Shown: in pieces, positions 6,203 to 60,710 of the stretch
How the letters are laid out: every line of letters starts with the position of its first letter
Position numbering within the stretch: the first letter of the stretch is position 1
NCBI GenBank assembly: GCA_965204895.1
Contig: OZ242025.1
Span: 1,793,621 to 1,857,620, forward strand
Reading direction: 5' to 3'
DNA from: Dehalococcoidia bacterium
GTDB taxonomy: Bacteria; Chloroflexota; Dehalococcoidia; Lucifugimonadales; UBA2985
Length of the DNA stretch: 64,000 bases
Made by a program: the position numbers and the translations under genes
Notes under the pieces: model-generated
Database searches by the model: none
The model's input: the letters and a program-made list of their open reading frames with translations, nothing else
What the model was told of the DNA's origin: nothing

Positions 6203-6264
6203 ACTGCCCGTATGGTTAGATGGCGCCGTCTCTGACGGCGCGCGAGCACAGAGAGGCTGAAAGG

Positions 6265-9406: not shown

Positions 9407-12175
9407 TTGTTCTCGGATCAGATTTCCAACAGATTGCAGGGGACTTTGCACAAGCTCTTGGGAATAGGTCTTCTGTGTTTGGTGGTCTCTGCAGCGCTAT
9501 CGGCGTGCGGTGAAGGGCCGGAACCGGAGCCAGTGGCTACCGCTGCGAGTACCGCTACGCCGACAGCCGCGCCGGCTCCAACCCATACAAGCGTACCACC
9601 GGCAACTTTGGCCCCGGGCCTCGTCACTACGCCCGTGCCGAGTCCCACCACGGTATCAACCCCAAGCGCCACCTCTACCCCCGCGCCATTGCCCACCACG
9701 CAGCAGCAAGAAGAAGCTCAGGATCACCCTGGCGAGATGCTGCCGTGGTTTGCCAGTCCGCCGGACGAGGCTCACATAACCGCCTCTGAGTTGATAACCA
9801 TCATTTGGATGCGGGATTCTTACACAGGGGAAACGGTTGCTCAAATGCCGTGGATTGTTGACGGGATTTCCGGCGGTGAGATTGCTGCTCTGAGGGCGTT
9901 AGCCGAGCCATCGTACTTCGGCATAGAGCTGGGTAGGGGCGTGGCTGAATCTCAGTGGGTTACCGATGGCCTTAGTGAAGGTGAGATTGATTTGCTGAGT
10001 TGGGCGCTTCCCAATGTGGCTTCCAGAGACCCGGATCTGGCAGTGTTGCTGTTCACCCCTCCCTGGGCGATGGACGGCCTGGACGACGCCGAATGGCTTG
10101 CTTTTGACATCCTGGTGCGAAGTGGAACCGAGCGCCCGGAGCTAGTCAGGCTCCTGGCCTCATCCCCCTGGGTTGCCGACGGCGCCGGCCGCACTGAACC
10201 GCTTATGGGTAACATTATTTCCTACTTTAATGAAATTGAAGTCAGAGACCCGGAAACAGCGATGCTGGTGGCGACAGCGCCCTGGGTGGTCGACGGCGTG
10301 GGCATTGGAGAGGCCCGCGTAATTCAATACGTGTCCAACTACCTGGAGAGCTTCCCGGAGAACGCCAGGCTGCTGCTGGACCTTCCCCAGGCTCTCGAAG
10401 GGTTGGCCGCCTACGACAGGCTGCTATACGACCTGGCGCCTATTGCTTTCTGGGACCGGCCTACTGCGCTGACCGTGTCCCGATACGCCGACGTCGCCAC
10501 AGAAGACATGGGCAGCTATCTCATCAGGTCGCTAACGCAATTCGCCGAGGGTGACTTGAATCGCTTTGACGAGCTTATTGAGCAGCCCTGGTTTGCCGAC
10601 GGGCTTGACGGCGGTGAGGCGGCGCTTGTGTCCACTCTCCACAACATCTTCAGGACCAGTCCGACCCTATACTATGAATTGCTGGAGACCCACTACGTTC
10701 AGAGCAAGACTGTTTCGTTGCCACTGGCCGGTGACGTCAACATCTGGGTTGTTCATAACGCTCCACCTCCACCGGGCGAAGACTTGCTCAAGGAAATCGC
10801 GGATACCGCTCGTATTTCCGAGGAGTACCTGGGGACGGAATTCCCCACGACGGACATTATTCTACTGGTGATAACCCCGGGCAATAGTGAATACGGGATA
10901 GGCGGGCACCATGCAGGCAGCCACATGGTGCTCAATAGGTCTAAGTCTAAGGGTGAAGTGAATGGCGTCCCGCACGAGACGGCCCACTACTACTTCTACT
11001 TCAACGTCGGCCAGGTGTGGTTCCGAGAGGGAGCGGCCCAGTTCATTGAGGCTTACGTTAACCATCGGACCGGCGAACAGCCCCTGGCCGACCGCAGGGC
11101 TCAGATGTCAGCTGAAACGGGAGCGAATTGTGTAGGCATAGGCACGGAGAACATACGGCATTTCACCTATGAACTGGAGCACATCTACGAGGGTCGCTTC
11201 TGGCCCGGCGGCTGTGGATACATCATGGGCGAGAATTTTCTGCTGCACGCATACTACGCGTTGGGTGCAGAGTCGATGTCAGCGGCCTTGAGGGAGCTGC
11301 TGTCACGCAATCAGGACTACCTACTGGGCGAGGAGTTGGTGCGGCCACCCACTGAAGAGGATATCTACGATACATTCCTGGAGCATACCCCGGCCGACCG
11401 GAAAGAGACGTTCAGAGACCTGTACCGCCGGCTGCACGGTGGGGCCTTCGCATTCCCGACCACCGATTTCTCAGACGAGCACGGAGATGAGCCGTCGGCG
11501 GCCTCCGCCATAGCAGTGGGACAGGCTATAGTGGGCGATCTGGACTACATGTTCGACTTCGACTACTTCAGGTTCCAGGCTGTAGAGGGGCAGAAGTACC
11601 GGATGAACGTCAACCACAACTCGCTGAGGATATCAAACATCACTCTGCTGGGCTTGGACGGGGTGACTCAGGAGATATGGAACTGGAAGTCCCGCAGACT
11701 GACGCCGTCCGGCCCTCAGATTCTATGGGTCGCGCCGGGCTCCGGAGACTACTACTTTGCCGTGCAGAACTTCGGCGGCAAGACGGGCCAGTACACGCTC
11801 ACCATTGCGCCTGTGGCCGATGTTGAGGATGACCACGGGGATTCCCTGGCCACAGCCACCTACGCATCTCTTGGAGAGGTTGTCCAGGGCGCTGTGGAAG
11901 ACGAGTTTGACCTCGACTACTTCCGGTTCCGGGTGGAGGCGGGTCGCAGGTACCAATTGAGTGTAAGCAGAGAGACCCTGGAATACTTCCGTATGAAGCT
12001 GTACGCGTCTGACGGGGCTCCACCCAGGGACTGGTATGGGAACCAGTTCGCCGATAACTCGGCGTCAGGGGACACGGTCGAGTGGGTGGCGCCGAGCTCC
12101 GGGGAGTTCTACGCTTCCGTAGAGGGCCATAGGGAGCACCTGGGCGCATACACCTTCACGATAACCAGCGCGTAG
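9407..12175 (+). CDS. Secreted lipoprotein paralog with intact HExxH (HETAH) gluzincin-like motif, six W-x-x-DG repeats and two PPC-type domains
   Basis: Collinear with 6265..9084 over its full length. Lipobox ALSAC, PT linker, HETAHYYF...WFREGAAQF (HExxH plus a downstream Glu as in MA-clan peptidases), DEHGD/DDHGD modules with FDFDYFRF and FDLDYFRF. Confidence 0.7.
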   Translation: MFSDQISNRLQGTLHKLLGIGLLCLVVSAALSACGEGPEPEPVATAASTATPTAAPAPTHTSVPPATLAPGLVTTPVPSPTTVSTPSATSTPAPLPTTQQQEEAQDHPGEMLPWFASPPDEAHITASELITIIWMRDSYTGETVAQMPWIVDGISGGEIAALRALAEPSYFGIELGRGVAESQWVTDGLSEGEIDLLSWALPNVASRDPDLAVLLFTPPWAMDGLDDAEWLAFDILVRSGTERPELVRLLASSPWVADGAGRTEPLMGNIISYFNEIEVRDPETAMLVATAPWVVDGVGIGEARVIQYVSNYLESFPENARLLLDLPQALEGLAAYDRLLYDLAPIAFWDRPTALTVSRYADVATEDMGSYLIRSLTQFAEGDLNRFDELIEQPWFADGLDGGEAALVSTLHNIFRTSPTLYYELLETHYVQSKTVSLPLAGDVNIWVVHNAPPPPGEDLLKEIADTARISEEYLGTEFPTTDIILLVITPGNSEYGIGGHHAGSHMVLNRSKSKGEVNGVPHETAHYYFYFNVGQVWFREGAAQFIEAYVNHRTGEQPLADRRAQMSAETGANCVGIGTENIRHFTYELEHIYEGRFWPGGCGYIMGENFLLHAYYALGAESMSAALRELLSRNQDYLLGEELVRPPTEEDIYDTFLEHTPADRKETFRDLYRRLHGGAFAFPTTDFSDEHGDEPSAASAIAVGQAIVGDLDYMFDFDYFRFQAVEGQKYRMNVNHNSLRISNITLLGLDGVTQEIWNWKSRRLTPSGPQILWVAPGSGDYYFAVQNFGGKTGQYTLTIAPVADVEDDHGDSLATATYASLGEVVQGAVEDEFDLDYFRFRVEAGRRYQLSVSRETLEYFRMKLYASDGAPPRDWYGNQFADNSASGDTVEWVAPSSGEFYASVEGHREHLGAYTFTITSA

Positions 12176-13973: not shown

Positions 13974-14222
13974 TCAGGCGTTCCTGTCAGACTGGGAGGG
14001 TGGAGGCTCATTGAACGGCTTGCCTTGCGCCTGGGCCTCCTCTCTCCGGCTGTTCCAGTCTTCCCACCTGGCCCGCTCTTCGTTTCGGCCTTCCCTTAGC
14101 CCCTCGTTTCGGCCCTCTCTTCTCAGCGCCTCTCTTATTCTGCTGGTGAGCACCATAATCCAACCTCCGGCTTCAACGACAATGATGGCGAGCACCGCGG
14201 ATGCCCGTCTGAGTGCGGGCAT
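13974..14222 (-). pseudogene. Second tandem duplicate of the same 3' cassette, 2 copies of the REGRNEGL-type unit
   Basis: 82-aa ORF, near identical to 14241..14513 with the same junction sequence. Confidence 0.4.
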
Positions 14223-14240
14223 GACTGAGGGGGCTACTTG

Positions 14241-14513
14241 TCAGGCGTTCCTGTCGGATTGGGAGGGTGGAGGCTCATTGAACGGCTTGCCTTGCGCCTG
14301 GGCCTCCTCTCTCCGGCTGTTCCAGTCTTCCCACCTGGCCCGCTCTTCGTTCCGGCCTTCCCTTAGCCCCTCGTTTCGGCCTTCCCTCAGCCCTTCGTTT
14401 CGGCCCTCTCTTCTCAGCGCCTCTCTTATTCTGCTGGTGAGCACCATAATCCAACCTCCGGCTTCAACGACAATGATGGCGAACACCGCGGATGCCCGTC
14501 TGAGTGCGGGCAT
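14241..14513 (-). pseudogene. Tandem duplicate of the 3' part (last TM plus tail) of gene 14532..14921, ORF intact, 3 copies of the REGRNEGL unit
   Basis: 90-aa ORF identical to the C-terminal 70-odd residues of the upstream gene except for unit number. A new ATG lies in the junction hairpin atgcccgcactcagacgggcat. No obvious RBS. Confidence 0.4.
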
Positions 14514-14531
14514 GACTGAGGGGGCTACTTG

Positions 14532-14921
14532 TCAGGCGTTCCTGTCGGATTGGGAGGGTGGAGGCTCATTGAACGGCTTGCCTTGCGCCTGGGCCTCCTC
14601 TCTCCGGCTGTTCCAGTCTTCCCACCTGGCCCGCTCTTCGTTTCGGCCCTCTCTTCTCAGCGCCTCTCTTATTCTGCTGGTGAGCACCATAATCCAACCT
14701 CCGGCTTCAACGACAATGATGGCGAACACCGCCGATGCGAGCGCCAATTCGCCTGTGCGCTCCCATACACGGAGTAGTATTGCCTGGATGGATGTTGATT
14801 GCTGCCATACCTCAGCGACGATGAAGATGATACCAACAATGATTTGACCCGTAAAGAGCGCATAGTATACCAGGGCCGTCCGGCTGGTTACGCTCCAAAC
14901 GGATATGCGGTCTTCATTCAA
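14532..14921 (-). CDS. Small two-TM membrane protein with Arg/Glu-rich cytoplasmic tail
   Basis: 129-aa ORF with two hydrophobic helices (LVYYALFTGQIIVGIIFIV, AVFAIIVVEAGGWIMVL) followed by REGRNEERARWEDWNSRREEAQAQ. The opposite strand is also open (13930..14847), so strand choice is not certain. Confidence 0.5.
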   Translation of the reverse strand: MNEDRISVWSVTSRTALVYYALFTGQIIVGIIFIVAEVWQQSTSIQAILLRVWERTGELALASAVFAIIVVEAGGWIMVLTSRIREALRREGRNEERARWEDWNSRREEAQAQGKPFNEPPPSQSDRNA

Positions 14922-15275: not shown

Positions 15276-15557
15276 TTGGCTACCATAAATGACCGGATAA
15301 CAAAGCTGGAAGACGCGTTTATCACACTGGCGGAGGGGCAGCGCGAGTTTGCCGCCATCTTGAAGGGTCTGGTGGAGGGCCAGCGCGAGTTTGCCGCCAT
15401 CTTGAAGGGTCTGGCGGAGGGCCAGAACGCTCTGGTGGAGGGTCAGAACGCTCTGGTGGAGGGTCAGAACACTCTAATTGAAGGCCAGAAGGCTATTATA
15501 GCCACCCTGCAGGACCACTCCGTAGAGTTGAAGCTCATTCGGGAGCACCTTGGATAG
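15276..15557 (+). CDS. Small coiled-coil repeat protein (EGQ repeats)
   Basis: 93-aa ORF with a TTG start 6 nt after AGGAGG. Internal tandem repeats: EGQREFAAILKGL x2 and EGQNALV-type heptads x4. Confidence 0.6.
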   Translation: MATINDRITKLEDAFITLAEGQREFAAILKGLVEGQREFAAILKGLAEGQNALVEGQNALVEGQNTLIEGQKAIIATLQDHSVELKLIREHLG

Positions 15558-16336: not shown

Positions 16337-19300
16337 ATGCGAACTATAGATTCATCCATCTCGGTAATCAAGCCGTCCAACCTGGCGTGGTGGCACAGGA
16401 GTTGGACAGGGCGATTTGTTCTGGCGGCCCTGCTCATTGCGGCTGCCGCCTTTGCCCTTATGCCGGACAGGACGTCCGCACAGGCCACGGTCGGAATAAC
16501 CGACTACTGTAAAGCTGACGGCGCTACCGGCCCCGGCGGTACTACGATTCCCACCGGAGACGTCGACGAAGACAACGGCATCATTACCGCTAACGTATTC
16601 ACCGAAGGCCTCCAGGCTGACTGTATCGCGTTGCTTACAGCGGCGGAAGCGCTGGAAGATGACAATGATGGTCCGAATGATGACAATGCGGATGTCGTGA
16701 ATGGGGATGCCGTAAACTGGATAGACGTGGACACACTACCGGACTTGAACACTGGTGGATGGGACGGCGTCACGGTCGCGGACCCTGACACCACTGACAC
16801 AGACACTGCCATTAGGGTTACAGAAGTCATCCTTCCCAGTGATTTGTCTGGCGGGTCGCTGGTGGCGGCATGGGCAGATCTCTCCGAGTTGACAAGCCTT
16901 AACCTTTCCGGCAACCATCTGAGTGGGGCTGTCCCGCGCAGCGTGTGGGAGTTCTTTGATGAGCAGATAACGTCCACTACTAATACGGATACCGACACGG
17001 ACAACGTAGATGCTCTGAATCTTGGCAGCAACCCAGACTTGGAACCGTCTCCTACGCTTAATCTGAAGGGTGTGGTGACCAAGGTAGCGGAGGGTGATGA
17101 CGCGGGCAAGACACAGGTTGAACTCTCCTTTGACAACGTCTGGTACACAACGGAGGTAACGGCGCACGAGTACCGGTACAGCGCCGACGGCGGTACATCC
17201 TGGGGCCCGAACGACGCCGAGAACGGCATGGGTTGGATGTCCATGGACGCGCTGCGCTGTCCTGTAACCCCTGCTACAGATCCTCCAACATATCAGCCTT
17301 GCGACAAGCTTGACAGCGCGACGCCCCAGGCTCGTGTGAGGAATACGATCGAGGTTATCCCTGAAGAGGACAAGGCCACCTACATCTTTGAGGTGCGGCG
17401 GGTTAAGGAAGTTGTGACTACGGAAGATGACGCTAGTACAACGGATGTAGACGAGACCGAAAAGGAAACTACAAAGAGTGAGGCCTCCCGGCTGGACGTG
17501 GTTGGCCCACGGACACTGACGGCGGATAGCCCATTCAGCCTGACCGTGGCGGTGGCCTACACGCCCACCCAGGAACCCGAGGAAGAGGATGGGGACAAGA
17601 CTTTCAAGGTGGAAGTCCTGGATGCGGAAGGCGAAGTTAACGATGAAGCGGACGACATCCTCACTATTGAGGTGGAAAGCACGGATGACGCCGTCACCTT
17701 GAAGTTCAACCCCTCGGCCGAAGGAAGCGCCAGGGTCACCCTTGGCTCACCGGCCACGGGCAAAGGCTCAACCAGCGTCTCCCACACCTTCCCTGTCACA
17801 ATTCACTCGGCGGACACCGCGCCCAAGCTGAGGGTGAACAGGATACGCCCCCAGGAGGTGGTCAACCACCGGCGCGACACCACCCTGGACCTGTCCAGGT
17901 ATTTTGAGGACTCTGGTAACCTGACGTTCGAAGCGGACTCGTCTGACGAGCGCGTGGCTACCGTTACCGTTGTTATAGACGAGGACGATGGCTCTTTGCT
18001 GGTCATTGACCCACATCGACCGGGCAGGACCATGATCACCATCACGGCCACCAATCCGGATCAGGGCACGTTCCAGCATGAATTCAGAGTGACGGTCGTG
18101 GACCCCAACACGGCTCCCCAGCTTGTGGGGACCATCCCGGACCTCACCCTCTACCTGGATGACGAGGGCACCCGGATAGACATGACCCAGTACTTCCGTG
18201 ACCTGGACAACGACTTCCTGCGCTTCATCCCGCAGTCGTCCAACGCCATGGTGCTCACGGCAAGGCCGGACGGCCGCTTCGTGGTCTTCCAGGTGACGGG
18301 CGTTGGAGAGGTCAGGATGACCATCATCGCCCAGGACGACGCCGGGGCCACGGCCTTTGGCAGCTTCAACGTTGAGGTGCTTGACCCCAACGACGCGCCG
18401 GAGGCGGTTGGCGAGATACCCAAGCAGCAGGTGCGCCTGGAGAGCTCCGGCGTGGCAATTGGCCTGGGCTCCTACTTCACGGACGCCAACGGCGACCCGC
18501 TGACCTACACGGCGGTATCGGCAGACGAGGCGATAGCGACGGTGGAGTTGATGGAGGCCACGGCCACCATAATGGCGGTGGCCCTTGGAGAGACCACGGT
18601 TACCTTTACGGCCACGGATCCGGGCGGGAAGTACGCCATGCAGGTGGCGGAGGTGGAGGTGCTGCCGGCCAACATGCCGCCGGTGCTCCTGGAGGAGATA
18701 CCGGACGTGCTGATGCAGGACGACGACGAGCCCCTGGGTCTGGACGTGACCATGTACTTCAGTGACCCTGAGGGCGAGGGCCTGGACTTCGCCGGAAGTG
18801 GCGACAACGAAGCGGTGGCGGTGGTCAGGGTGCACAGCGACGGCCTGGTGCGTGTGGACGCCCAGGAGGTCAGCCCCGGAGCGGCCGGTGAAGTTGAGAT
18901 AACGGTGTCGGCCCGCGACCCGCACGGCGCGTCGGTGTCGGACACCTTCATAGTGACGGTGCAGGGCAACCTGCCGCCAGAGGCGGTGGGCAGCATAGAG
19001 GACCAGGCGCTGCTTGAGGGCCGGGACGCGCTGATGGAGGTTGCTGAGTACTTCAACGACCCCAACGGCGACGAGCTGACCTACATGGCAACCTCGGACA
19101 ACCTTGATGCGGTTGCGGCCGTCAGCATAGAGGGCAGCCAGCAGATAGTGTTGAGGGCGCTCTCGCCTGCGGAGAATGTGACCGTAACGGTGACGGCAAT
19201 GGACCCGGACGGAGAGTCTGCGGCTCAGCTGATAAACGTGACGGTGATAGCTGCGGCGCCACCGCCCACGGCGACGCCTGAGCCCACGGCCACGCCTGAG

Positions 19301-19453
19301 CCGACGCCGACGCCGGCCCCCACGGCCACGCCGGCTCCCACGCCGACTCCTGAGCCGGAGGAGGGCGGATTCCCGGTGGGGCTGATTATAGTGCTCCTGC
19401 TGGTGCTGGCCGGTATAGCTGCGGCGGTGTTCATCATCCAGCGTCGCCGGTAG
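16337..19453 (+). CDS. Large cell-surface protein with five cadherin/Ig-like repeats, PT-rich stalk and C-terminal TM anchor
   Basis: N-terminal signal/anchor (FVLAALLIAAAAFALMP). Five repeats of about 100 aa share (N)xxP..(V)G.IPD...YF.D.(D/N)GD.L(T/R)(Y/F). PT linker TATPEPTATPEPTPTPAP. The tail is GGFPVGLIIVLLLVLAGIAAAVFIIQRRR. Confidence 0.75.
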   Translation: MRTIDSSISVIKPSNLAWWHRSWTGRFVLAALLIAAAAFALMPDRTSAQATVGITDYCKADGATGPGGTTIPTGDVDEDNGIITANVFTEGLQADCIALLTAAEALEDDNDGPNDDNADVVNGDAVNWIDVDTLPDLNTGGWDGVTVADPDTTDTDTAIRVTEVILPSDLSGGSLVAAWADLSELTSLNLSGNHLSGAVPRSVWEFFDEQITSTTNTDTDTDNVDALNLGSNPDLEPSPTLNLKGVVTKVAEGDDAGKTQVELSFDNVWYTTEVTAHEYRYSADGGTSWGPNDAENGMGWMSMDALRCPVTPATDPPTYQPCDKLDSATPQARVRNTIEVIPEEDKATYIFEVRRVKEVVTTEDDASTTDVDETEKETTKSEASRLDVVGPRTLTADSPFSLTVAVAYTPTQEPEEEDGDKTFKVEVLDAEGEVNDEADDILTIEVESTDDAVTLKFNPSAEGSARVTLGSPATGKGSTSVSHTFPVTIHSADTAPKLRVNRIRPQEVVNHRRDTTLDLSRYFEDSGNLTFEADSSDERVATVTVVIDEDDGSLLVIDPHRPGRTMITITATNPDQGTFQHEFRVTVVDPNTAPQLVGTIPDLTLYLDDEGTRIDMTQYFRDLDNDFLRFIPQSSNAMVLTARPDGRFVVFQVTGVGEVRMTIIAQDDAGATAFGSFNVEVLDPNDAPEAVGEIPKQQVRLESSGVAIGLGSYFTDANGDPLTYTAVSADEAIATVELMEATATIMAVALGETTVTFTATDPGGKYAMQVAEVEVLPANMPPVLLEEIPDVLMQDDDEPLGLDVTMYFSDPEGEGLDFAGSGDNEAVAVVRVHSDGLVRVDAQEVSPGAAGEVEITVSARDPHGASVSDTFIVTVQGNLPPEAVGSIEDQALLEGRDALMEVAEYFNDPNGDELTYMATSDNLDAVAAVSIEGSQQIVLRALSPAENVTVTVTAMDPDGESAAQLINVTVIAAAPPPTATPEPTATPEPTPTPAPTATPAPTPTPEPEEGGFPVGLIIVLLLVLAGIAAAVFIIQRRR

Positions 19454-19454
19454 A

Positions 19455-20375
19455 CGCTCGCCATCCTCCACCGTCATTCCCGTGAAGACGGGAATCCGGG
19501 AGGAGCGGTAGCGGAAAGCTAGGGAACAATGAGGCCCCTCGCTAAATGCGGGGGGCCTTCTTTTGTCAGCACGACCATTCCTGCGAAGGGGTGGCGTGGG
19601 GGTCGGCGTCTTTTGATTCCTCACTGCGTTCGGAATGACATTGCCGTCGTCATTCCTGCCAGGCAGAATTCAGGGACGTGATCTGTCATGCCCGTGCAGC
19701 CTGCCCCGTACTTGATACGGGGACGGGCATCCAAGGACGGGAGATGGATTCCTGCCTCCGCAGGAATGGTCTGTATCTGGTGTCGTTGTCCCCGTTGAGC
19801 GGCTTTGGATTCCTCGCTGCGCTCGGAATGGCGTTGCCGTCGTCATTCCGGCGGAAGCCGGAATCCAGGGCCTTGATCCGTCATGCCCGTGCAGCCTGCC
19901 CCGTACTTGATACGGGGACGGGCATCCAAGGACGGGGGATGGATTCCTGCCTCCGCAGGAATGGTCTGCATAAGGCGTCGTTGTCCCCGTTGAGCGGCTT
20001 TGGATTCCCCACTGCGCTCGGAATGGCGTTGCCGTCGTCATTCCTGCCAGGCAGAATTCAGGGACATGATCTGTCATGCCCGTGCAGCCTGCCCCGTACT
20101 TGATACGGGGACGGGCATCCGGGCGCTGGAGATGGATTCCTGCCTCCGCAGGAATGGTCTGTATCTGGTGTCGTTGTCCCCGCTGAGCGGATTTAGATTC
20201 CTCGCTGCGCTCGGAATGGCGTTGCCGTCGTCATTCCGGCGGAAGCCGGAATCCAGAGGCGAGGGGATGGCGGAATCCCGCCCCGTATCGGAGTGCGGGA
20301 CAGGCCTGGGTGGGAGTAGTGTTTGTATACCATTCCTGCGGAGGCAGGAATCCAGAGGTGGGGGAGGTGGACTCC
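19455..20375. repeat. Higher-order tandem array of clamp-hairpin modules (unit about 193-195 bp, about 4 units, alternating A/B subtypes)
   Basis: cggaatg(a/g)c(a/g)ttgccgtcgtcattcc recurs at 19631, 19824, 20019 and 20212. Units 1 and 3 carry cattcctgccaggcagaattcagg; units 2 and 4 carry cattccggcggaagccggaatccag. Confidence 0.95.
19532..19565 (+). terminator. Intrinsic terminator after the 1038-aa surface protein gene
   Basis: aggcccc(t)cgc-taaat-gcg(g)ggggcct followed by tcttttg. Confidence 0.7.
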
Positions 20376-24531: not shown

Positions 24532-25146
24532 ATGACCTACGATTTCCTCCCGTCCGTGGCCGCTCCTCTGGCGCGCCTCATTGAGGAGTTCCACAAGCTG
24601 CCGGGCATTGGCCCCAAGAGCGCCCAGCGCCTGGCCTACTACCTCATTCGTATGCCCCCGGATGAGGCGCGGTCGCTGGCAGAGGCTGTCCTGGCCGTCA
24701 AGGAGCGGGTCATCTTCTGCAGCGTCTGCCAGAACATCACCGAGAGCAGCCCTTGCTACCTCTGCTCCCACGAGGGTCGTGACAGGTCTCGGATATGCGT
24801 GGTGGAGGAGCCCCTGGACGTGCTCTCCCTTGAGCGCACACAGGTGTACAAGGGGCTTTACCACGTGCTCCACGGCGTTATATCGCCCGCCAGCGGCATA
24901 GGGCCGGACGACCTGAAGCTGCGGGAGTTGATGGATCGTCTGAAGGACAACCAGGTGGGAGAGGTGATCCTGGCGACCAACCCCAGCCTGGAGGGCGAGA
25001 ACACTTCAATGTACATACAGCGTATGCTCTCGCCCCTGGGTTTGCGGGTGACGCGCCTCGCCAGGGGTCTTCCCGTAGGCGGAGACCTGGAGTACGCTGA
25101 CGAGGTTACGCTAAGCCGCGCCCTGGAGGGCCGTCAGGAAGTGTAG
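24532..25146 (+). CDS. recR: Recombination protein RecR
   Basis: HhH motif [15 protein letters not shown]4 zinc finger CSVCQN..CYLC and a Toprim region. Confidence 0.92.
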
Positions 25147-25163
25147 GCTTTCGAGTTCATCCC

Positions 25164-25970
25164 ATGACCACCACGCCAAAGACATACAAGACGGAGGCTA
25201 TTGTCCTCAGGCACCACCCCATTGGGGAGGCCGACTACCTTCTCACCCTGTTCACCCCCAACAGAGGCAAGGTGCGGGCGGTGGCCAGGGGCGCGCGCCG
25301 CATAAAGAGCAAGCTGGGCGGCCACGTTGAGCCTCCCATGCGCACTTCCCTCTTCATGGTGAAGGGCCAGAACCTGGACACTGTGAACCAGGCTGAGGCG
25401 CTGGAGGGCTTCCGCCCCCTGAGGGAGGACCTGAACAGGCTGTCCCAGGCCCTTTACATGCTGGAGATGGTGGACGCCTTCTCCCAGGAGGAGCAGGCAA
25501 ACTATCCCGTTTATCGACTTGTGCTGGACTCCCTGCGTTCCCTGTCCGGCGATGCGCCGCCCGCTCTTCTGCCGTACTTCCAGATGCGACTCCTCGACCA
25601 CAGCGGCTTCCGGCCGGAGCTGCACCGATGCGTGGAGTGCGAAGCAGGCCTGGAGCCGGGACGCCACTCCTTCGCGCCGAGCCAGGGAGGCGCCCTCTGC
25701 GACTCGTGTCGTCCGCCCGGCGTGAGCATCCTTCCCATGTCCCTGAACGCCGTCAAGGTACTGCGGTTCCTTCAGAGGGAGAGCATGCCCAACGCAGAGA
25801 AGCTCACCCTGGAGCAGGACACTCTTGGAGAGTTGGAGAGGCTTCTGGGCGCGCTGATAAGGTGTGTTCTGGACAGGGACGTGAGGGCGTCCAGGTTTGT
25901 GCAGCAGGTGAACCAGAGAGACCATGTTGAGCCTGTTGGCCTCTCGCACGGAGACCGGGGCAAGGGATGA
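25164..25970 (+). CDS. recO: DNA repair protein RecO
   Basis: N-terminal OB region EAIVLRHHPIGEADYLLTLFTPNRGKVRAVARGARR and a zinc motif CVEC...CDSC. Confidence 0.88.
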   Translation: MTTTPKTYKTEAIVLRHHPIGEADYLLTLFTPNRGKVRAVARGARRIKSKLGGHVEPPMRTSLFMVKGQNLDTVNQAEALEGFRPLREDLNRLSQALYMLEMVDAFSQEEQANYPVYRLVLDSLRSLSGDAPPALLPYFQMRLLDHSGFRPELHRCVECEAGLEPGRHSFAPSQGGALCDSCRPPGVSILPMSLNAVKVLRFLQRESMPNAEKLTLEQDTLGELERLLGALIRCVLDRDVRASRFVQQVNQRDHVEPVGLSHGDRGKG

Positions 25971-27617: not shown

Positions 27618-28058
27618 TTACGTCGCAATTGGCAGTGACGGCGCTTCCAGGACGACCTCGCTGCCCATGGCCCGCAGAGCATCGTTTAGACGGCTGACAG
27701 ACGTCCGATGACGAGGGTTGAGCATTCTCTGGACAACCTTCCTGTCCACGCCAAGGCGCTCAGCCAGGGCTGACTGGGTGAGGCCACTGGCGCGAAAGAC
27801 CAGGACCAGAGCAGCCTTTGCTGCCATGTCTATGGGCAGCGCGACCATGCGCTCGCCGGGCAGCGGAGCGCTGGGCGCCGGTATAGACTCCCCGGTCCTG
27901 AGGCGGCCATAGATGGCGGTATCCAGGGCATCCTCTGCTTCGAGAAGGGCCTCAGCCTCATCCTCGCCCGATGTGAGGCACTCCGGCAGGTCCCGGAAGG
28001 ACACTACAATCTCGTTCTCACTGTACCGCTTCAGTTGCGCCGGGTATATGAATTGCAT
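27618..28058 (-). CDS. hicB: HicB-family antitoxin with C-terminal HTH
   Basis: The N-terminal HicB fold pattern (YPAQL...VSFRDLPECLTSGEDEAEAL..AEDAL) is followed by an Xre-type HTH LTQSALAERLGVDRKVVQRML. It lies immediately downstream of the hicA-like gene. Confidence 0.8.
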   Translation of the reverse strand: MQFIYPAQLKRYSENEIVVSFRDLPECLTSGEDEAEALLEAEDALDTAIYGRLRTGESIPAPSAPLPGERMVALPIDMAAKAALVLVFRASGLTQSALAERLGVDRKVVQRMLNPRHRTSVSRLNDALRAMGSEVVLEAPSLPIAT

Positions 28059-29410: not shown

Positions 29411-30193
29411 ATGTTGGTATTCCTGGACGAAAGCGGGATACCACACCCGAATGACTCGAATCTAAATCCAGTCGTGGTCGCCGTGTGCATTGATCGAAAC
29501 CTCACGAGATCAATGGCCGGCCAGATATTTGCCCTAAAGCGGCGTTTAGGCACACCTGATATTGAGTTGAAGGGAGTAAACCTCATAACTCGCAGGGTTT
29601 TCGAGAGGCGTGAGAACGAATGGGAATTAGTGGAGTCCTTTTTTGACCTTTGCCGTACGCTTCCGTTCACACTCTTTTGCGTAGTGATGGAGCATCCACA
29701 AGAACTGCCACACGGGAGCGAACCTGGTGGCGAGAACTACCTCCCTAATCAATACCGATACCTGCTCCAGAGAATAGACCTATTGGCAGAAGAGTCCGGG
29801 AAAATGGCTACTCTCCTCTTTGACGGAGACGGCCCTTCCATGTTCGGCGGTACTTTGCCTAAGAAGTTTGAATCATTTCTATACCGTTCCACCGAGGGCA
29901 GATCATTTACAAACATATCGGATGCCCCGTACTTTGTTGACTCGCGCTTAACACAGGGTATTCAGATTGCAGACATGGCAGCGTATGTCTGTAGAATCTA
30001 TCAGGAGAATAGACTATACGAGGGTTTACCTCAGGGCGACCGATACCTTTCAGCAATAAACAGGTACTACGGTGTTCTCAGGGCCAAGTCGGTTGACCTA
30101 GTTTCCAACGAGGGCTTTGCTCGTCCTGGAATGTATATTATGCCCGAGAGAGATCATTACCGTAGAGAGGGCGAGCAAGGGCACTTGGTCTAG
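29411..30193 (+). CDS. DUF3800 family protein
   Basis: The N-terminus MLVFLDESG is the DUF3800 hallmark. The conserved IQIADM segment lies late in the protein. The gene is visibly AT-richer than its neighbours. Confidence 0.7.
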   Translation: MLVFLDESGIPHPNDSNLNPVVVAVCIDRNLTRSMAGQIFALKRRLGTPDIELKGVNLITRRVFERRENEWELVESFFDLCRTLPFTLFCVVMEHPQELPHGSEPGGENYLPNQYRYLLQRIDLLAEESGKMATLLFDGDGPSMFGGTLPKKFESFLYRSTEGRSFTNISDAPYFVDSRLTQGIQIADMAAYVCRIYQENRLYEGLPQGDRYLSAINRYYGVLRAKSVDLVSNEGFARPGMYIMPERDHYRREGEQGHLV

Positions 30194-30488: not shown

Positions 30489-30530
30489 GGGAGAGCTACA
30501 GTAGCGCTATACGTAGCTCTCCCTCTATTT
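30489..30530 (+). promoter_or_regulatory. Terminator-like hairpin in the glyA leader
   Basis: gggagagctac-N13-gtagctctccc followed by tctattt, about 30 nt upstream of the glyA RBS. Confidence 0.4.
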
Positions 30531-30560
30531 GAGGCTTTGTAGTGCAGTTAAGGAGGCCCA

Positions 30561-31805
30561 ATGAGCGCATTGCGAGAGAAAGACCCTGACGTAGCCCTGG
30601 CCATCGAGAAGGAGTCCGAGAGGCAGAGGAGGAACATTGTCCTCATCGCTTCCGAGAACTACGCCAGCCAGGCGGTGCTGGAAGCCCAGGGCTCTGTGCT
30701 GACCAACAAGTACGCCGAAGGCTACCCCGGGCGTCGATACTACGGCGGCTGTGAGTACGTGGACATCGCCGAGCAGCTGGCGATCGACAGGGCGAGCGCC
30801 CTGTTCGGGGCGGAGTACGTCAACGTCCAGCCTCACAGCGGAGCGCAGGCGAACATGGCGGCCTACTTCGCCATCCTGGAGCCGGGAGACACCGTGCTGG
30901 GCATGAGGCTTGACCAGGGCGGGCACCTCACCCACGGCAGCCCGGTGAACTTCTCCGGCAAGCTGTACAACTTCGCGGCCTATGGCGTTGACAGGGAGAC
31001 GGAGCACGTGGACTACGACGAGGTGGAGCGGCTGGCCCTGGAGCACAAGCCCAAGGTCATTGTGGCCGGGTACACGGCGTATCCCAGGACCATCGACTTT
31101 CCCAGGTTCAGGGAGATCGCCGACAAGGTGGGCGCGCTCCTCATGGTGGACATGGCCCACATCGCCGGGCTCATTGCCGCCGGGGTGCACCCTTCTCCGC
31201 TGCCCCACGCCAACGTGGTCACGTCCACCACCCACAAGACAATGAGGGGGCCAAGGGGAGCCTTCATCCTGTCCACCCAGGACAGGGCGCGGGCCATCAA
31301 CAGCGCCGTCTTCCCCTTCACCCAGGGCGGGCCCATGATGCACGCCATCGCAGGCAAGGCAGTGGCCTTTGGCGAGGCGCTGCAGCCGGAGTTCAAGGAG
31401 TACCAGCAGGGCGTCGTGGACAACGCCCGGACACTGGCCCAGGGCCTCACCGAGAGCGGGCTGAGGGTCGTTTCCGGCGGCACGGACAATCACCTGGTGC
31501 TCGTCGACCTGACGCCCATCAACGTCACCGGCCAGGAGGCGGAGGACGCCCTTGGCAAGGTGAACATCACCGTCAACAAGAACGCCATCCCCTTCGATGC
31601 GCGTCCGCCCAGGGTCACCAGCGGCCTGCGCCTTGGGACACCGGCGGTCACCAGCCGGGGCTTTGGCGTAGAGGAGATGCGGGACATTTCCCGTCTGATA
31701 GTCAAGACCCTTGCCAACATCGGAGACGCGGCGGTGGAGAAGGAGGTCAGGGAGGACGTGGAAGGGATTGGCTCCCGGTTTCCGGTGCCGGGCCTGGATT
31801 CGTGA
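30561..31805 (+). CDS. glyA: Serine hydroxymethyltransferase
   Basis: PLP-lysine motif [13 protein letters not shown] with full-length SHMT pattern. AGGAGG RBS. Confidence 0.95.
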
Positions 31806-31876
31806 GCGGCTAGCTTCGCCGGGCCTCAGTGCGCAGCGTTGACGCTGTGCGCGTGGCTGGTTATCATCGAAACACA

Positions 31877-32812
31877 ATGGCGGAAGCAGAGAAAGTACCG
31901 CACGCCTGGGGGTGGGCCACGCCCAAAGCCCTCCTCTCCTCCATGCGCCCGCGCCAGTGGACAAAGAACCTCATCATCTACTTCGCCTTCTTCTTCACCG
32001 TAAACCAGGGGTGGCAGCTTGATGACATTGGCGAAGCGACGCGCCTCTTTGCACGCACCACCATTGCCTTTGCCCTGTTCTGCCTGGTCACCAGCGCCGT
32101 TTATCTGATTAACGACGTAGCCGACGCGGAGAAGGACAGGCGTCATCCCGAAAAGCGACACCGGCCCGTTGCCGCGGGGACTCTGCCGCCGGCGCTGGCC
32201 CTGGGCATGGCCTTCCTTATGGCGACGGGCAGCATTGCGCTTGCGGCTGTCCTTGACCCGATGTTCGCGCTGGTGGCGCTGATCTACTTCGTCGTGATGA
32301 TCGCCTACTCCACGTACCTGAAGCGCCTGGTCATCCTCGACGTCTTCACCATTAGCGCGGGGTTCGTGCTGAGGGCTGTGGCGGGCGCGATCATACTGGG
32401 CGTGGTCATATCGCCCTGGCTGTACGTCTGCACCAGCCTGGGCGCTCTGTTCCTGGGCTTTGCCAAGCGCCTCAACGAGTCCGTGCTGGCCGGAGAGGAA
32501 GCCGGCCTCCAGCGAGAGGCCCTGGACGACTACAACCCCAAGTTCCTGGAGCAGCTCATCGCGATTGTGGCTCCGGCCACCCTGGTCTCCTACATCCTCT
32601 ACACCTTCACCTCCGAGAACCTGCCCGACAACCACGCCATGATGCTCACCATTCCCTTTGTCATGTACGGCCTCTTCCGCTACCTCTACCTGGTCCACAA
32701 CAAGAACCTGGGGGAGAGCCCGGAGGAGATACTCCTCACCGACAAGCCGCTTATGCTGAACATCGCGCTCTGGCTGATAAGCGCCTCTGCAGTGCTGGTG
32801 GTGTACAGGTAG
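31877..32812 (+). CDS. UbiA-family prenyltransferase, decaprenyl-phosphate phosphoribosyltransferase-like
   Basis: RPRQWTKNL, Asp-rich motif NDVADAEKDRRHPEKRHRPVAAG and 8-9 TM helices. ATG 31877 preferred within ORF 31829..32812. Confidence 0.8.
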   Translation: MAEAEKVPHAWGWATPKALLSSMRPRQWTKNLIIYFAFFFTVNQGWQLDDIGEATRLFARTTIAFALFCLVTSAVYLINDVADAEKDRRHPEKRHRPVAAGTLPPALALGMAFLMATGSIALAAVLDPMFALVALIYFVVMIAYSTYLKRLVILDVFTISAGFVLRAVAGAIILGVVISPWLYVCTSLGALFLGFAKRLNESVLAGEEAGLQREALDDYNPKFLEQLIAIVAPATLVSYILYTFTSENLPDNHAMMLTIPFVMYGLFRYLYLVHNKNLGESPEEILLTDKPLMLNIALWLISASAVLVVYR

Positions 32813-54098: not shown

Positions 54099-54198
54099 TG
54101 CTGGGTTGTATCATGAACGCGTTCAAAGCTACGTCAAGAGGCAGCGCCGTCCTCAACAAACAACGCTGCCTCTGCGTCTCCCTTTTGTCGGTATCCTT

Positions 54199-54657
54199 CT
54201 ACAGCTTGTCCAGCTCGTCCAGGATCTCCTGGACGTCGGGCAGGCCGCGGTCGTAGACGCGCTTGTACCTGATCACGCCTTCCTTGTCGATGATGATGAC
54301 CGCCCGCTTGCCGACGCCCCGCTCTTCGTCGTAGATGCCGAACAGCTCGAACACATGGCCCTTGGGGTTGAAGTCGGCCAGGAGCGGGTAGGGAAGGTTG
54401 CCGAGGCCGGAGGCGAAGGCCCTCTGCGTTGGGGCGCTGTCCACGCTCATCCCCAGCACCTGCGCGCCCTTCTCCTCAAACCTGCGATTTTCGATCCGGA
54501 ACCCGGAACACTGGTGAGTTCAACCGCCTGTGAAGGACAGGAGATGGGTCTGGATAACAACGGTCTTCTCACCCAGGTACTGGCTGAGGGTGATGTTTTC
54601 CCCGTCATGGGAGCGGAGGGTGAAGTCCGGCGCCTTGTCTCCTACTTCTGCTGTCAT
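54199..54657 (-). CDS. Peroxiredoxin (BCP/PrxQ-like) with in-frame UGA at the peroxidatic position: putative selenocysteine peroxiredoxin
   Basis: My own translation from ATG 54657 (AGGAGG RBS) gives MTAEVGDKAPDFTLRSHDGENITLSQYLGEKTVVIQTHLLSFTGG-[TGA 54522..54520]-THQCSGFRIENRRFEEKGAQVLGMSVDS..., which continues in frame into track ORF 54199..54459. The TGA aligns with the Cys of the FT(P/G)xC-T-x-Q/E Prx motif, and a hairpin follows it. Confidence 0.7.
54492..54510 (-). promoter_or_regulatory. SECIS-like stem-loop downstream of the in-frame UGA
   Basis: The mRNA reads UGA ACUCACCAG UG U UCCGG GUU CCGGA U CG. The core is a 5-bp stem (54495..54499 with 54503..54507), extendable past a U.U mismatch. 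The apical loop contains GU, with its G about 18 nt after the UGA. Confidence 0.5.
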
Positions 54658-54820
54658 GTCTGCCTCCTGAGTGAAACTTGGCTGTGTTCACCTAGTCTAA
54701 CCCGCGCGCGTCGTTGGCGCAATGAGAACGCTAGGGTAATTCAGGCCTCAAAACTACCTCTTCTCCCTCGATGGAGACCTTTGCACAACTCCAGCGTTGT
54801 CCCGAAGGGAGCGCTTTTTG

Positions 54821-54900
54821 GCCGTCATTCCGGCGGAAGCCGGAATCCAGGGCGCTTATACAAAGCGAGGGATAGATTCCAGTTTTCACGGGAATGACGA
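54821..54900. repeat. Clamp-hairpin repeat pair
   Basis: gtcattccggcggaagccggaatccag, plus the degenerate reverse copy gattccagttttcacgggaatgac. Confidence 0.8.
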
Positions 54901-58373: not shown

Positions 58374-59488
58374 TATCTCTTCCTGGTGTAGAAAGGAATT
58401 GGGGCCACCTCCGCCTCCGCCTGCCTGCCCCGGATGTCTATGGCTATCCCGGTCCCGGGTTGTGAGTGTTCCATGGCAACATAGCCTAAACCAATGCCCA
58501 TGTCAAGGGTAGGAGAGTGGGCGCCGCTGGTGACCTCGCCGATGGCCTCGCTCCCCCTCAGCATTGCGTAGCCGTGGCGGGGTATCCCGCTCTTTTCGAC
58601 CAGGCGGAAGCCGACCAGAGTCCTCTCCGGCCCACGATCGCGCATCTCTTGCAACGCCGACAGGCCGATGTAGTCGCCCTTGGCGAAGCTCACGAAGCGG
58701 TCCAGTCCGGCCTCGATGGGCGTGAGGGTGGCGTCCATGTCCGACCCGTGAAGCAGCAGCCCCGCCTCCAGCCGTAGCACGTCCCGCGCCCCCAGCCCGC
58801 AGGGCGTCGCACCGCCTGCGATGAAGCTGCGCCACAGCGACGGCGCATCGACCGCCGGGTAGATGACCTCAAAGCCGTCCTCGCCGGTGTACCCCGTGCG
58901 GCAGACCACCGCCGCGACCCCGGACACCTGCGCCTCCACGGCGCGGAAGGGCCTGACGGCGGACAGGTCAACGGAGGTCAGAGCCTGTAGAATGTCCTGG
59001 GCGTTGGGGCCTTGAAGGGCAATCAGGGCCGTCTCCTCCGTGCGCACGTTGATGGTTACGTCCATTCGCCACTCGTCCAGCCATTTCCTGAGCCACGCCA
59101 GGTCCGTGTCCGCGTTGGCGGCGTTGACAATGAAGATGAAACGCTCATCGCCCATGCGGTAGAGAATGGTGTCGTCTATGACTCCGCCCCGCTCGTTGCA
59201 GAGCAGGGTGTAGCGGGCGCGGCCCAGGGGCATGTTGACAACATCCGCCGTCACCAGCCGGTGAAAGAAAGCGGGCGAGTCTGCGCCGGTGACCTCCAGA
59301 CGCCCCATGTGGGACACGTCGAAGATCCCGGCCCTGGCGCGCACGTCCCTGGACTCCGAGAGGATGCTTGTGTACTGGATGGGCATCTCCCACCCGGCAA
59401 AGGGCACCATGCGCCCGCCGGAGGCCTGGTGCTCCTCAAAGAGGGCGGTGCGCTTCAGGGAGTCATGCTCTGCGTTTTGCTCTGTCAT
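58373..59488 (-). CDS. gcvT: Glycine cleavage system aminomethyltransferase T
   Basis: GWEMPIQY, FDVSHMG and the full-length GcvT pattern. Confidence 0.93.
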   Translation of the reverse strand: MTEQNAEHDSLKRTALFEEHQASGGRMVPFAGWEMPIQYTSILSESRDVRARAGIFDVSHMGRLEVTGADSPAFFHRLVTADVVNMPLGRARYTLLCNERGGVIDDTILYRMGDERFIFIVNAANADTDLAWLRKWLDEWRMDVTINVRTEETALIALQGPNAQDILQALTSVDLSAVRPFRAVEAQVSGVAAVVCRTGYTGEDGFEVIYPAVDAPSLWRSFIAGGATPCGLGARDVLRLEAGLLLHGSDMDATLTPIEAGLDRFVSFAKGDYIGLSALQEMRDRGPERTLVGFRLVEKSGIPRHGYAMLRGSEAIGEVTSGAHSPTLDMGIGLGYVAMEHSQPGTGIAIDIRGRQAEAEVAPIPFYTRKR

Positions 59489-59624
59489 AGGTATTCGGAA
59501 GCAACGGAAATCGTTACGGCTATCAGTTCCATATTATGACGGATGGGGCGTTAGGTCAATGGCTGGGAGGGGATGGCAAATCATGTGTGATACAATCCTG
59601 AGGAGCTACAGGCGAGGTGACGTT

Positions 59625-60710
59625 ATGTCTGTCTACAAGATTACGCCAGAAGCAGTAGAGCAACTGAGAGAGACTACTTTCGAGGCCGAGAATCTCTACG
59701 AACGTTATGACATGCAGCGTTTGCTGCGTGATAGTCCCGACGTATTAGAAGAAGGATTGTTTATCCTTGCTGAAGAATACGGGAGCTGGGAAGAATCCTA
59801 TCGCCGTATCGACCTGCTGGCGTTAGATGAAGAAGGACGGCTGGTGGTTATCGAACTTAAGCGAAGTGATCAGGACAGTCTCATGGATTTGCAGGCAATC
59901 CGATACGCGGCAATGGTAGCCAACATGACGGTGGAACAGGTGATTGACGCTCACCGCGATTATCTCAACAAACGAGATAGCAATGAGGATGCCGAATCCC
60001 GCATTCGAGAACATCTGAGAGCGGAAGATGCAGAAATTCGTATTGACACTGGTAAACCAAGAATTGTGCTGGTTTCATCCAACTTTTCCAAAGAACTGAC
60101 TACTAGCGTCTTATGGCTTAAGGGCTTCGAAATGGATATTACTTGCGTGAAGTTGCAGCCCTACAAAACAGGGCAAGATCTGTTTCTTGAAAGAAGCCAG
60201 ATTATTCCCATTCCAGAGACGGAGGACTACCTGGTCCGTTTGCGGGACAGAGAGAGGGAAGTTGAACGGCAAGAGACTTCCCAAGTAGAGACTAGCTCTG
60301 GGGCTGATGCGTTCCGAGGAGCTATAGAAGCGGCGAACGCGGATTCAAAAGAGATGTTAGAGCAATTGTATAATTGGGCATTGTCGTTGGAGTCAAATAA
60401 ACTTGCCCGGCTTTCCACAAGGTCAGGGTCTTACAATAATGTTCTTCGCGTCACGTTGCCTGATAGCAACAGCGGGTTAGTTAATGTTCTTAAGAATAAG
60501 TTAGGCTGGGGATACCTTAAGTTCAACGGTAATCTGCTCGATAGTCGTGCACCGAGGTCTAAAGACCGTATTGAGAAAATCACAGATATGACTATCGGGC
60601 AAAACACCACGCTCTGGGAGTTGCAAGATGGCTTCCTCGAAGCATTAACTGACGCATATCGAGAGGCCAAGGGAGCATTTTCAGACATGGCCGAAGAAGA
60701 AACAAAATAG
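59625..60710 (+). CDS. PD-(D/E)xK nuclease-fold protein, NucS/DUF91-like N-terminal domain plus uncharacterised C-terminal domain
   Basis: The motif RIDLLALDEEGRLVVIELKR...LQAIRYAAM gives the D...(D/E)xK core in NucS-like order. ATG 59625 preferred, because the 59289 extension runs antisense over gcvT. The gene is visibly AT-richer. Confidence 0.6.
   Translation: MSVYKITPEAVEQLRETTFEAENLYERYDMQRLLRDSPDVLEEGLFILAEEYGSWEESYRRIDLLALDEEGRLVVIELKRSDQDSLMDLQAIRYAAMVANMTVEQVIDAHRDYLNKRDSNEDAESRIREHLRAEDAEIRIDTGKPRIVLVSSNFSKELTTSVLWLKGFEMDITCVKLQPYKTGQDLFLERSQIIPIPETEDYLVRLRDREREVERQETSQVETSSGADAFRGAIEAANADSKEMLEQLYNWALSLESNKLARLSTRSGSYNNVLRVTLPDSNSGLVNVLKNKLGWGYLKFNGNLLDSRAPRSKDRIEKITDMTIGQNTTLWELQDGFLEALTDAYREAKGAFSDMAEEETK

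Follow-up and report, generated by a model that had tools for sequence, protein, structure and literature searches.

PrxU of Eubacterium acidaminophilum, reportedly demonstrated experimentally by Sohling and colleagues in 2001, is a peroxiredoxin that carries selenocysteine (Sec) in a TxxU motif. Sec-containing peroxiredoxins are abundant in bacteria: 43 such genes were found in the Sargasso Sea (PMC1088965), and the TxxU type is included in catalogues of prokaryotic selenoproteomes (PMC1794560, PMC13188914), with reviews of these enzymes giving the motif as PxxxTxxU. We analysed a 64,000-nucleotide (nt) stretch of a Dehalococcoidia bacterium chromosome (contig OZ242025.1, positions 1,793,621 to 1,857,620; hereafter the window), which contains a peroxiredoxin gene interrupted by an in-frame TGA. 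The locus is, with a probability of about 0.93, an intact gene for a 152-residue AhpE-type (AhpC/TSA) peroxiredoxin with Sec predicted at UGA codon 46 in the sequence F-T-G-G-U. An initial annotation of the window had proposed a Sec-peroxiredoxin missed by open reading frame (ORF) calling and had placed it in an established bacterial class. The class has indeed been known since 2001, and the proposal is supported by the TGA column in homologues, by selection on both halves of the gene, by RNA structure specific to the TGA-containing sequences and by the presence of selA in the lineage. Because TxxU Sec-peroxiredoxins have long been known, the window gene represents a new, mis-annotated member of a known family.

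The coding sequence spans positions 54199..54657 of the reverse strand and is composed of 152 codons followed by a TAG stop (54201-54199). Conceptual translation from 54657 to 54199 gives MTAEVGDKAPDFTL...GEKTVV...LSFTGG, a stop, THQCSGF...DKL and the final stop; the residues flanking the interruption are MTAEVGDKAPDFTLRSHDGENITLSQYLGEKTVVIQTHLLSFTGG and THQCSGFRIENRRFEEKGAQVLGMSVDS...LDELDKL. The single internal stop is the TGA at 54520..54522 (reverse strand), codon 46. The ATG at 54657-54655 is preceded, at a distance of 5 nt, by a Shine-Dalgarno-like AGGAGG (54663..54668, reverse strand), and gene callers applied to other assemblies place the start of the N-terminal 45-aa ORF at the equivalent ATG. 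The mechanical ORF list contained only the C-terminal 86-aa piece of the gene (54199..54459, reverse strand). The features described in the initial annotation, namely the 86-aa ORF, the peroxiredoxin N-terminus, the lone TGA, the THQCSGF that follows it and the ribosome-binding site before ATG 54657, were each recovered here, the last with a measured spacing of 5 nt. With Cys substituted for Sec, the product matches Pfam AhpC-TSA (PF00578) over profile positions 1-123 of 124 (E 1.3e-31; 109.6 bits, cutoff 26), and thus the AhpC-TSA domain is continuous across the TGA. Upstream and downstream of the TGA alike, GC content at the three codon positions resembles that of coding sequence: 0.60/0.40/0.71 for the N-terminal part and 0.65/0.36/0.91 for the C-terminal part. 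The reference values from confident window genes, taken from a gene map filtered by GC content at the third codon position (GC3), are 0.62-0.70/0.38-0.47/0.81-0.87. Directly 3' of the stop codon we identified a 10-bp inverted repeat, AGAGGCAGCG(17 nt)CGCTGCCTCT (54137..54173, reverse strand), which is terminator-like and has no U tract. Because the gene has its own ribosome-binding site, an upstream intergenic gap of 320 nt and this inverted repeat after its stop, it may be transcribed on its own.

Comparison with the described enzymes places the predicted protein closest to the AhpE group. The top seven matches in the PDB are all AhpE-type, namely six Mycobacterium tuberculosis AhpE entries (Rv2238c/MT2298) and 4xih (“AhpC/TSA family protein”). 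The 1-Cys AhpE itself (PDB 1XXU, 1XVW, 4X0X, 5C04) is the best match of known structure, with E values of 4e-24 to 8e-23 over residues 4-138. The two proteins are nearly equal in length (153 aa and 152 residues), share the F-T-G-x-C/U and Arg positions and belong to a wider family without a conserved resolving Cys, whereas AhpE has Cys and the canonical Pro and is only about 40% identical to the window protein. Cys homologues of the gene are labelled “mycoredoxin-dependent peroxiredoxin” by JGI. On these sequence comparisons the window protein is assigned to the AhpE subfamily. AhpE is reduced by mycoredoxin-1 with mycothiol, a reductant that to our knowledge would not be expected in Chloroflexota.

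The Sec-peroxiredoxins of the TxxU family and the window gene have several traits in common: an AhpC/TSA fold, Sec (predicted in the window) where other members have the peroxidatic Cys, an in-frame stem-loop (a candidate one in the window) behind the UGA, and the existence of Cys homologues. They differ in that the Pro of the PxxxTxxU motif is V, I or L in the window and in 54/71 TGA relatives. PrxU likewise uses Sec as the peroxidatic residue. However, the PrxU model (NCBIfam NF040737; cutoff 270) gives the window protein a score of 63 bits, which makes it no equivalog of PrxU; PrxU is also longer (model length 233), whereas the window protein is AhpE-like with 152 residues. The atypical 2-Cys PrxQ/BCP enzymes (Cp-x4-Cr) resemble it in having a second Cys soon after the peroxidatic residue on the same helix, such that an intramolecular bond is conceivable, but the spacing in the window is U-x3-C rather than C-x4-C and the second Cys occurs in only 3/71 relatives. 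The scores against the BCP/PrxQ models were 58.6 bits (NF006960, cutoff 140) and 49.6 bits (NF053650, cutoff 260). Finally, the Prx-SUH thiol peroxidase (NF045827), a recently defined selenoprotein, is also a thioredoxin-fold peroxidase with Sec, but its motif is CxxU and not TxxU, and the window protein reaches only 28.5 bits against a cutoff of 298. In the literature searched (AhpE, SAR202 and Chloroflexi selenoproteins) we found no description of an AhpE-like Dehalococcoidia clade, of the Pro-less motif or of its Sec insertion sequence (SECIS).

The active-site motif is L39-L-S-F-T43-G-G-U46 (54520..54543, reverse strand). Tested against PxxxTxxC plus a distal Arg, the protein has T43, U46 in place of C, and R118, whose codon lies at 54304..54306 (reverse strand), and carries Leu where the canonical motif has Pro. 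Thr43 is invariant in all relatives and the active-site Arg118 in all 80 related loci described below as well as in protein alignments. Of the 71 TGA homologues, 54 have V, I or L at position 39 and 17 have Pro, whereas Pro is found in all nine Cys homologues. A resolving-type Cys four residues after the TGA had been pointed out previously, and Cys50 (TGT, 54508..54510, reverse strand) is present in the window as a possible lineage-specific resolving Cys. It is not a feature of the family; found in only three of the 71 TGA homologues, this U-x3-C arrangement is an addition specific to the small subclade of the window.

Evidence that the TGA encodes an amino acid comes principally from the homologues. 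We compared the 80 best of at least 578 related DNA loci, taking one genome per species, at 41-99% identity. In the DNA-level alignment, the codon at the Sec column is TGA in 71/80 loci, TGC in 9/80 and TAA or TAG in none. The TGA carriers belong to Dehalococcoidia, other Chloroflexota, Armatimonadota, Acidobacteriota, Binatia, Eisenbacteria and, as metagenome-assembled genomes (MAGs), delta- and beta-proteobacteria, and also include the isolate Sulfobacillus harzensis DSM 109850. Other stops were found in a single locus of the 80, where the stop is simply that locus's natural one placed two residues early, and there were no frameshifts. Across 70 full-length homologues, Cys at this column is at least 90% conserved and is never replaced by Trp or Gly, and U46 aligns with the peroxidatic Cys45 of M. 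tuberculosis AhpE. The placement of the TGA at the peroxidatic Cys, which the initial annotation had based on the motif, is thereby confirmed, as is the identity of the Sec and Cys columns when the U-to-C protein is aligned with homologues; the disrupted relatives with stops at other positions that it had considered were not encountered among the 80 loci. Given the coding-like GC content on both sides and the TGA in 71/80 related loci, the TGA-interrupted arrangement is not due to chance.

The protein database reflects the same interruption. The closest entries, at 63-96% identity, are without exception C-terminal pieces of 83-103 aa, and no full-length Cys protein exceeds 49% identity. Two further full-length entries (P0001 and P0004; 52-57% identity) carry W at the Sec position, and P0001 extends beyond the normal C-terminus. 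An exact database look-up in which residue 46 of the full-length protein was set to X or W returned no match.

Purifying selection acts equally on the two halves of the gene. Against two related loci (L002 and L003), the ratio of non-synonymous to synonymous substitution rates (dN/dS) is 0.20-0.25 for the 45 codons before the TGA and 0.15-0.25 for the 106 codons after it. Between the window and its close relative L001 we identified 13 synonymous changes, six of them upstream of the TGA, and no non-synonymous change. The same pattern extends to the four population variants available (the window, L001, which is identical to L083, L084 and L085; 93-97% nucleotide identity), in which the TGA is kept throughout, the protein is identical and 29 of the 29 variable sites are synonymous. 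The equal dN/dS values and the all-synonymous population changes on either side of the TGA argue that both halves are translated as one protein. Furthermore, none of these 29 sites falls in the 83 nt around and after the TGA (coding sequence nt 112-194; 54464..54546, reverse strand), where about five would be expected, and this suggests RNA-level constraint around the UGA.

An RNA signal is also apparent in the relatives. In TGA homologues, the 44 nt after the codon have a median folding z-score of -2.9 against dinucleotide shuffles, with 82% of sequences below -1.5. By comparison, the median in TGC homologues is +0.56 with none below -1.5 (Mann-Whitney p = 5e-6). For 50 Dehalococcoidia-type sequences, stem columns 14-21/45-52 and 24-27/39-42 are paired in 72.8% of cells, as opposed to 39-52% in slid controls. 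The covariation score of this stem is 0.215, against at most 0.126 in slid controls, with nine pairs changed on both sides, although some of these double changes lie at third-codon positions and could partly reflect shifts in GC content. In TGA homologues the apical loop, mostly 3-9 nt long, starts at a median distance of 27 nt from the UGA, and a G occurs early in it in only 36/71 of them. In more distant TGA subfamilies, hairpins of differing sequence occupy the same place. The published rules for bacterial SECIS elements (bSECIS) call for a loop of 3-9 nt with G in its first two positions, 16-37 nt from the UGA, and a minimum free energy (MFE) of -7.5 kcal/mol or lower (PMC13188914), and the spacing of the relatives' apical loop fits this geometry. 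RNAalifold, applied to the 50 aligned TGA regions, recovered only four pairs, as the register of the upper stem varies from one sequence to the next, and we therefore relied on an explicit structure and on per-sequence z-scores.

The lineage also carries selA. In the closed chromosome OY821663.2, whose orthologue is 82% identical to the window gene, selA lies 7.3 kb from the peroxiredoxin gene (TIGR00474, 550 bits; cutoff 268), and in GCA_034423275.1 and GCA_028877205.1 it lies about 5 kb from the orthologue. Closer to the window, scaffold_35 of ERZ23495174 (494,320 bp) encodes a peroxiredoxin with identical amino acids together with selA (573 bits, TIGR00474), about 140 kb apart. Judging only from equal contig sizes, two more pairs of a peroxiredoxin fragment and SelA appear to share a contig (391,787 bp and 32,791 bp). 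The search for sel genes suggested in the initial annotation was therefore productive in part: selA was located on the same contig as the identical-protein copy and beside the orthologue in three genomes, whereas selB, selC and selD did not turn up in the sequence available. Tblastn with E. coli SelA, SelB and SelD on the window and all flanks returned the selA of L002 only. Weak SelB matches in L026 and L029 represent ordinary GTPase similarity and were rejected.

The surroundings of selA are themselves conserved in several relatives. Sister genomes (L002, 10001-19106; L087 and L088, 4660-11356) share a block of genes in the order Prx-trmI-HD-acs (acetyl-CoA synthetase)-HMGL-selA; GCA_034423275.1 and GCA_028877205.1, the assembly of L087, are among the genomes with this arrangement. 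L002 carries an IS481 transposase insertion behind trmI. The block is broken in the lineage of the window, where selA is situated about 140 kb away.

Within the window itself, we identified two candidate SECIS structures. The first, hairpin A (54495..54507, reverse strand), has the form UCCGG-GUU-CCGGA, with a 5-bp stem, a 3-nt loop starting G-U and a UGA-to-loop spacing of 17 nt. This hairpin had been noted in the initial annotation as starting about 10 nt after the UGA; it is present and starts 12 nt after the UGA, but it is not the structure conserved in relatives, which form a longer stem-loop with its loop at about 27 nt. Its pairing probability is about 0.01 in a free 66-nt RNA and rises to about 0.8 when the 12-15 nt that adjoin the UGA are excluded from pairing, as would be the case if they were held inside the ribosome. 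A 7-bp hairpin with the same GUU loop occupies the same position in one of the related loci (L008). The second candidate, stem C (54457..54516, reverse strand), is a long imperfect hairpin with a core stem at 54501-54473 and a 10-nt apical loop, GAAAAUCGCA, which begins with G and starts 27 nt after the UGA. It dominates the free 66-nt RNA (MFE -18.2 kcal/mol; core pair probabilities 0.74-0.89). Hairpin A is one plausible candidate SECIS of the window alongside stem C.

Several results, concerning both the RNA and the Sec machinery, speak against a functional Sec codon at this locus. The 44 nt after the UGA of the window have an MFE of -7.1 kcal/mol and a z-score of +1.16, and the 71-nt region has a z-score of +0.95, so that neither region, nor stem C with them, is stabler than shuffled sequence. 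Of the 72 TGA sequences, none departs more clearly from the rest in fold stability than those of the window and L001. The conserved stem of the family is largely disrupted in the window by nine substitutions relative to the sister lineage, whose own element is identical in L002, L087, L088, L090 and L091. Rfam returned no relevant family for the whole window at the gathering threshold or for 54380-54600 at E <= 10. In our re-implementation of the bSECIS rules, hairpin A passes (-9.6 kcal/mol, 17-nt spacing), but so do 4/9 Cys controls. Overall, the strict rules accept 24/72 TGA and 4/9 TGC sequences, being neither sensitive nor specific, and the re-implementation was dropped as evidence for failing to discriminate between the two. 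As for the machinery, tblastn with the E. coli proteins and ARAGORN identified no selA, selB, selD or tRNA-Sec in the 64-kb window, ARAGORN found no tRNA-Sec in 63 loci either, and none of the related loci yielded selB, selC or selD within the sequence examined. The selA-bearing contig is 93-96% identical to the window, but not identical.

The weakness of the RNA signal could mean that the family is a genuine selenoprotein family in which the SECIS has degenerated in the lineage of the window, with inefficient Sec insertion and a gene heading towards loss or replacement of Sec by Cys. The outlying folds of the window and L001 and the nine substitutions within the conserved stem-loop would agree with this. 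Such decay is nevertheless unlikely, as the four diverged population variants show zero amino-acid changes between them, the absence of synonymous variation in nt 112-194 argues for an RNA signal that is maintained but remodelled, and the window offers two alternative hairpins whose loops begin with G and lie at permitted distances from the UGA.

A second explanation accepts that the UGA is translated but assigns it to Trp, Cys or Gly, by near-cognate decoding or an alternative code, rather than to Sec. The W in P0001 and P0004 and the fact that selB, selC and selD were not observed directly could be taken in its favour. However, TGA is the terminator of 13 of the 45 confident genes in the window, where Trp is encoded by TGG 124 times, and because TGA ends these genes the standard genetic code applies. 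Homologues have Cys in the Sec column and never Trp or Gly, and the two W entries are most simply explained as gene calls made under translation table 4. Moreover, neither a downstream structure specific to TGA sequences nor selA in the lineage would have any role in plain read-through, and we consider this explanation very improbable.

The locus might also be a pseudogene in which a nonsense mutation struck a Cys-peroxiredoxin, the two ORF pieces being decaying remnants. Every mechanical ORF caller does split the gene and the downstream RNA structure of the window is weak, but the TGA occupies the same column in 71 species-level genomes without further stops or frameshifts, dN/dS is about 0.2 on both sides, and the neutral chance of 29/29 synonymous population changes is about 1e-18, assuming about 24% synonymous sites; the pseudogene explanation is effectively refuted. 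That the true codon is TGC or TGT and the TGA a sequencing or assembly error, a concern raised in the initial annotation for which a one-base difference would suffice, has a negligible probability, since the identical TGA is reproduced in independent assemblies from other samples and pipelines (DAOUJW01, ERZ23495174, ERZ25068482 and ERZ23495235) and in dozens of long-read chromosomes.

We therefore return to the Sec-peroxiredoxin, for which the following mechanism can be outlined. SelB and Sec-tRNA(Sec) would be recruited by the mRNA stem-loop directly 3' of the UGA, and Sec would be inserted at UGA46 without termination. In the folded enzyme, the selenolate of U46, activated and positioned by Thr43 and Arg118, would attack the hydroperoxide and be converted to a selenenic acid, which a thiol partner would then reduce. 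In the subclade of the window, this reduction could possibly proceed via a U46-C50 selenenylsulfide, because residues i and i+4 share one face of the active-site helix, as is the case in peroxiredoxin structures in general.

Because 71/80 of the closest homologues in species-representative genomes have TGA/Sec, the data suggest that selenium-dependent peroxide defence is the norm and not the exception in this peroxiredoxin branch. More tentatively, the Dehalococcoidia genes may represent a distinct and essentially unannotated Sec-dependent branch of the AhpE type that has given up the active-site Pro ([V/I/L]xxxTxxU) and in which Sec is the prevailing state. According to this speculative proposal, the SECIS of the branch would be plastic, the long stem-loop having been replaced by a minimal element in the lineage of the window, and acquisition of Cys50 would have turned a 1-Sec enzyme into one with an intramolecular selenenylsulfide cycle. 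The absence of Pro from the active site and the remodelling of the SECIS are relevant to the extent to which the active site of a peroxiredoxin and the bacterial signal for Sec insertion may drift.

Public annotation of the gene is inconsistent between records. Gene calls split it into ORFs of 45 and 83 aa (GCA_034423275.1 and ENA assemblies) or retain fragments of 83-103 aa, as anticipated in the initial annotation. In GCA_028877205.1 (JAPPHY010000003.1; L087, 4660-5118), on the other hand, the orthologue is given as one 152-residue product despite the in-frame TGA, and at least one public annotation thus treats this codon as read through. In standard pipelines the gene ends up either in two fragments or as a “redoxin domain-containing” stub. 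Inferences on the proteomes, pangenomes and metabolism of Dehalococcoidia, SAR202-related members among them, and of several other uncultured phyla therefore miss both the enzyme and the selenium requirement that it implies. A GC3-based scan of the window for further TGA-interrupted genes identified none, its sole match being the antisense strand of ybeY. The whole peroxiredoxin gene is also covered by an antisense ORF of 263 aa (54106-54897, forward strand) with antisense-type composition (GC content at the first codon position 0.74, GC3 0.57). Several other long ORFs of this GC-rich window are also antisense artefacts that exceed in length the real genes opposite them, among them those at 30525-31964 (glyA) and 25134-25949 (recO).

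The window has a GC content of 61% and contains housekeeping genes including recF, dnaX, recR, recO, gyrA, glyA, mnmA and a glycine-cleavage operon. It shares 93-96% nucleotide identity with one contig from the MAG “Dehalococcoidia bacterium S34_281” and with contigs of three ENA metagenome assemblies, and the close protein fragments and SelA homologues bear SAR202-cluster or Chloroflexota names. Two paralogues of about 950 aa (6220-9084 and 9407-12175, forward strand) have signal or transmembrane starts, Pro/Thr-rich linkers and C-terminal PPC (pre-peptidase) domains, and a surface protein with Big_2 and Big_9 domains is encoded at 16337-19453. Non-coding tandem repeats were identified at 14080-14655 (two units of 291 nt, 97% identity), 15327-15494 (units of 42 and 21 nt) and 19606-20237 (3.3 units of 193 nt, 89% identity), and the ORFs over them lack coding-type composition. 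A HicB-like antitoxin with a helix-turn-helix domain (27618-28058, reverse strand), for which no obvious HicA partner was called, lies near a DUF3800 gene (29411-30193, forward strand) with GC3 below that of the core genes. Between an ADP-ribosylglycohydrolase gene and gcvT we identified a variable islet (59289-60710, forward strand), which encodes a 473-aa NucS_C-like protein of low GC3 in the window, AAA_15 and DUF3226 proteins in L083 (2242-4854) and a DUF4062 protein in L084 (2908-4789); this islet has the appearance of a mobile- or defence-gene hotspot.

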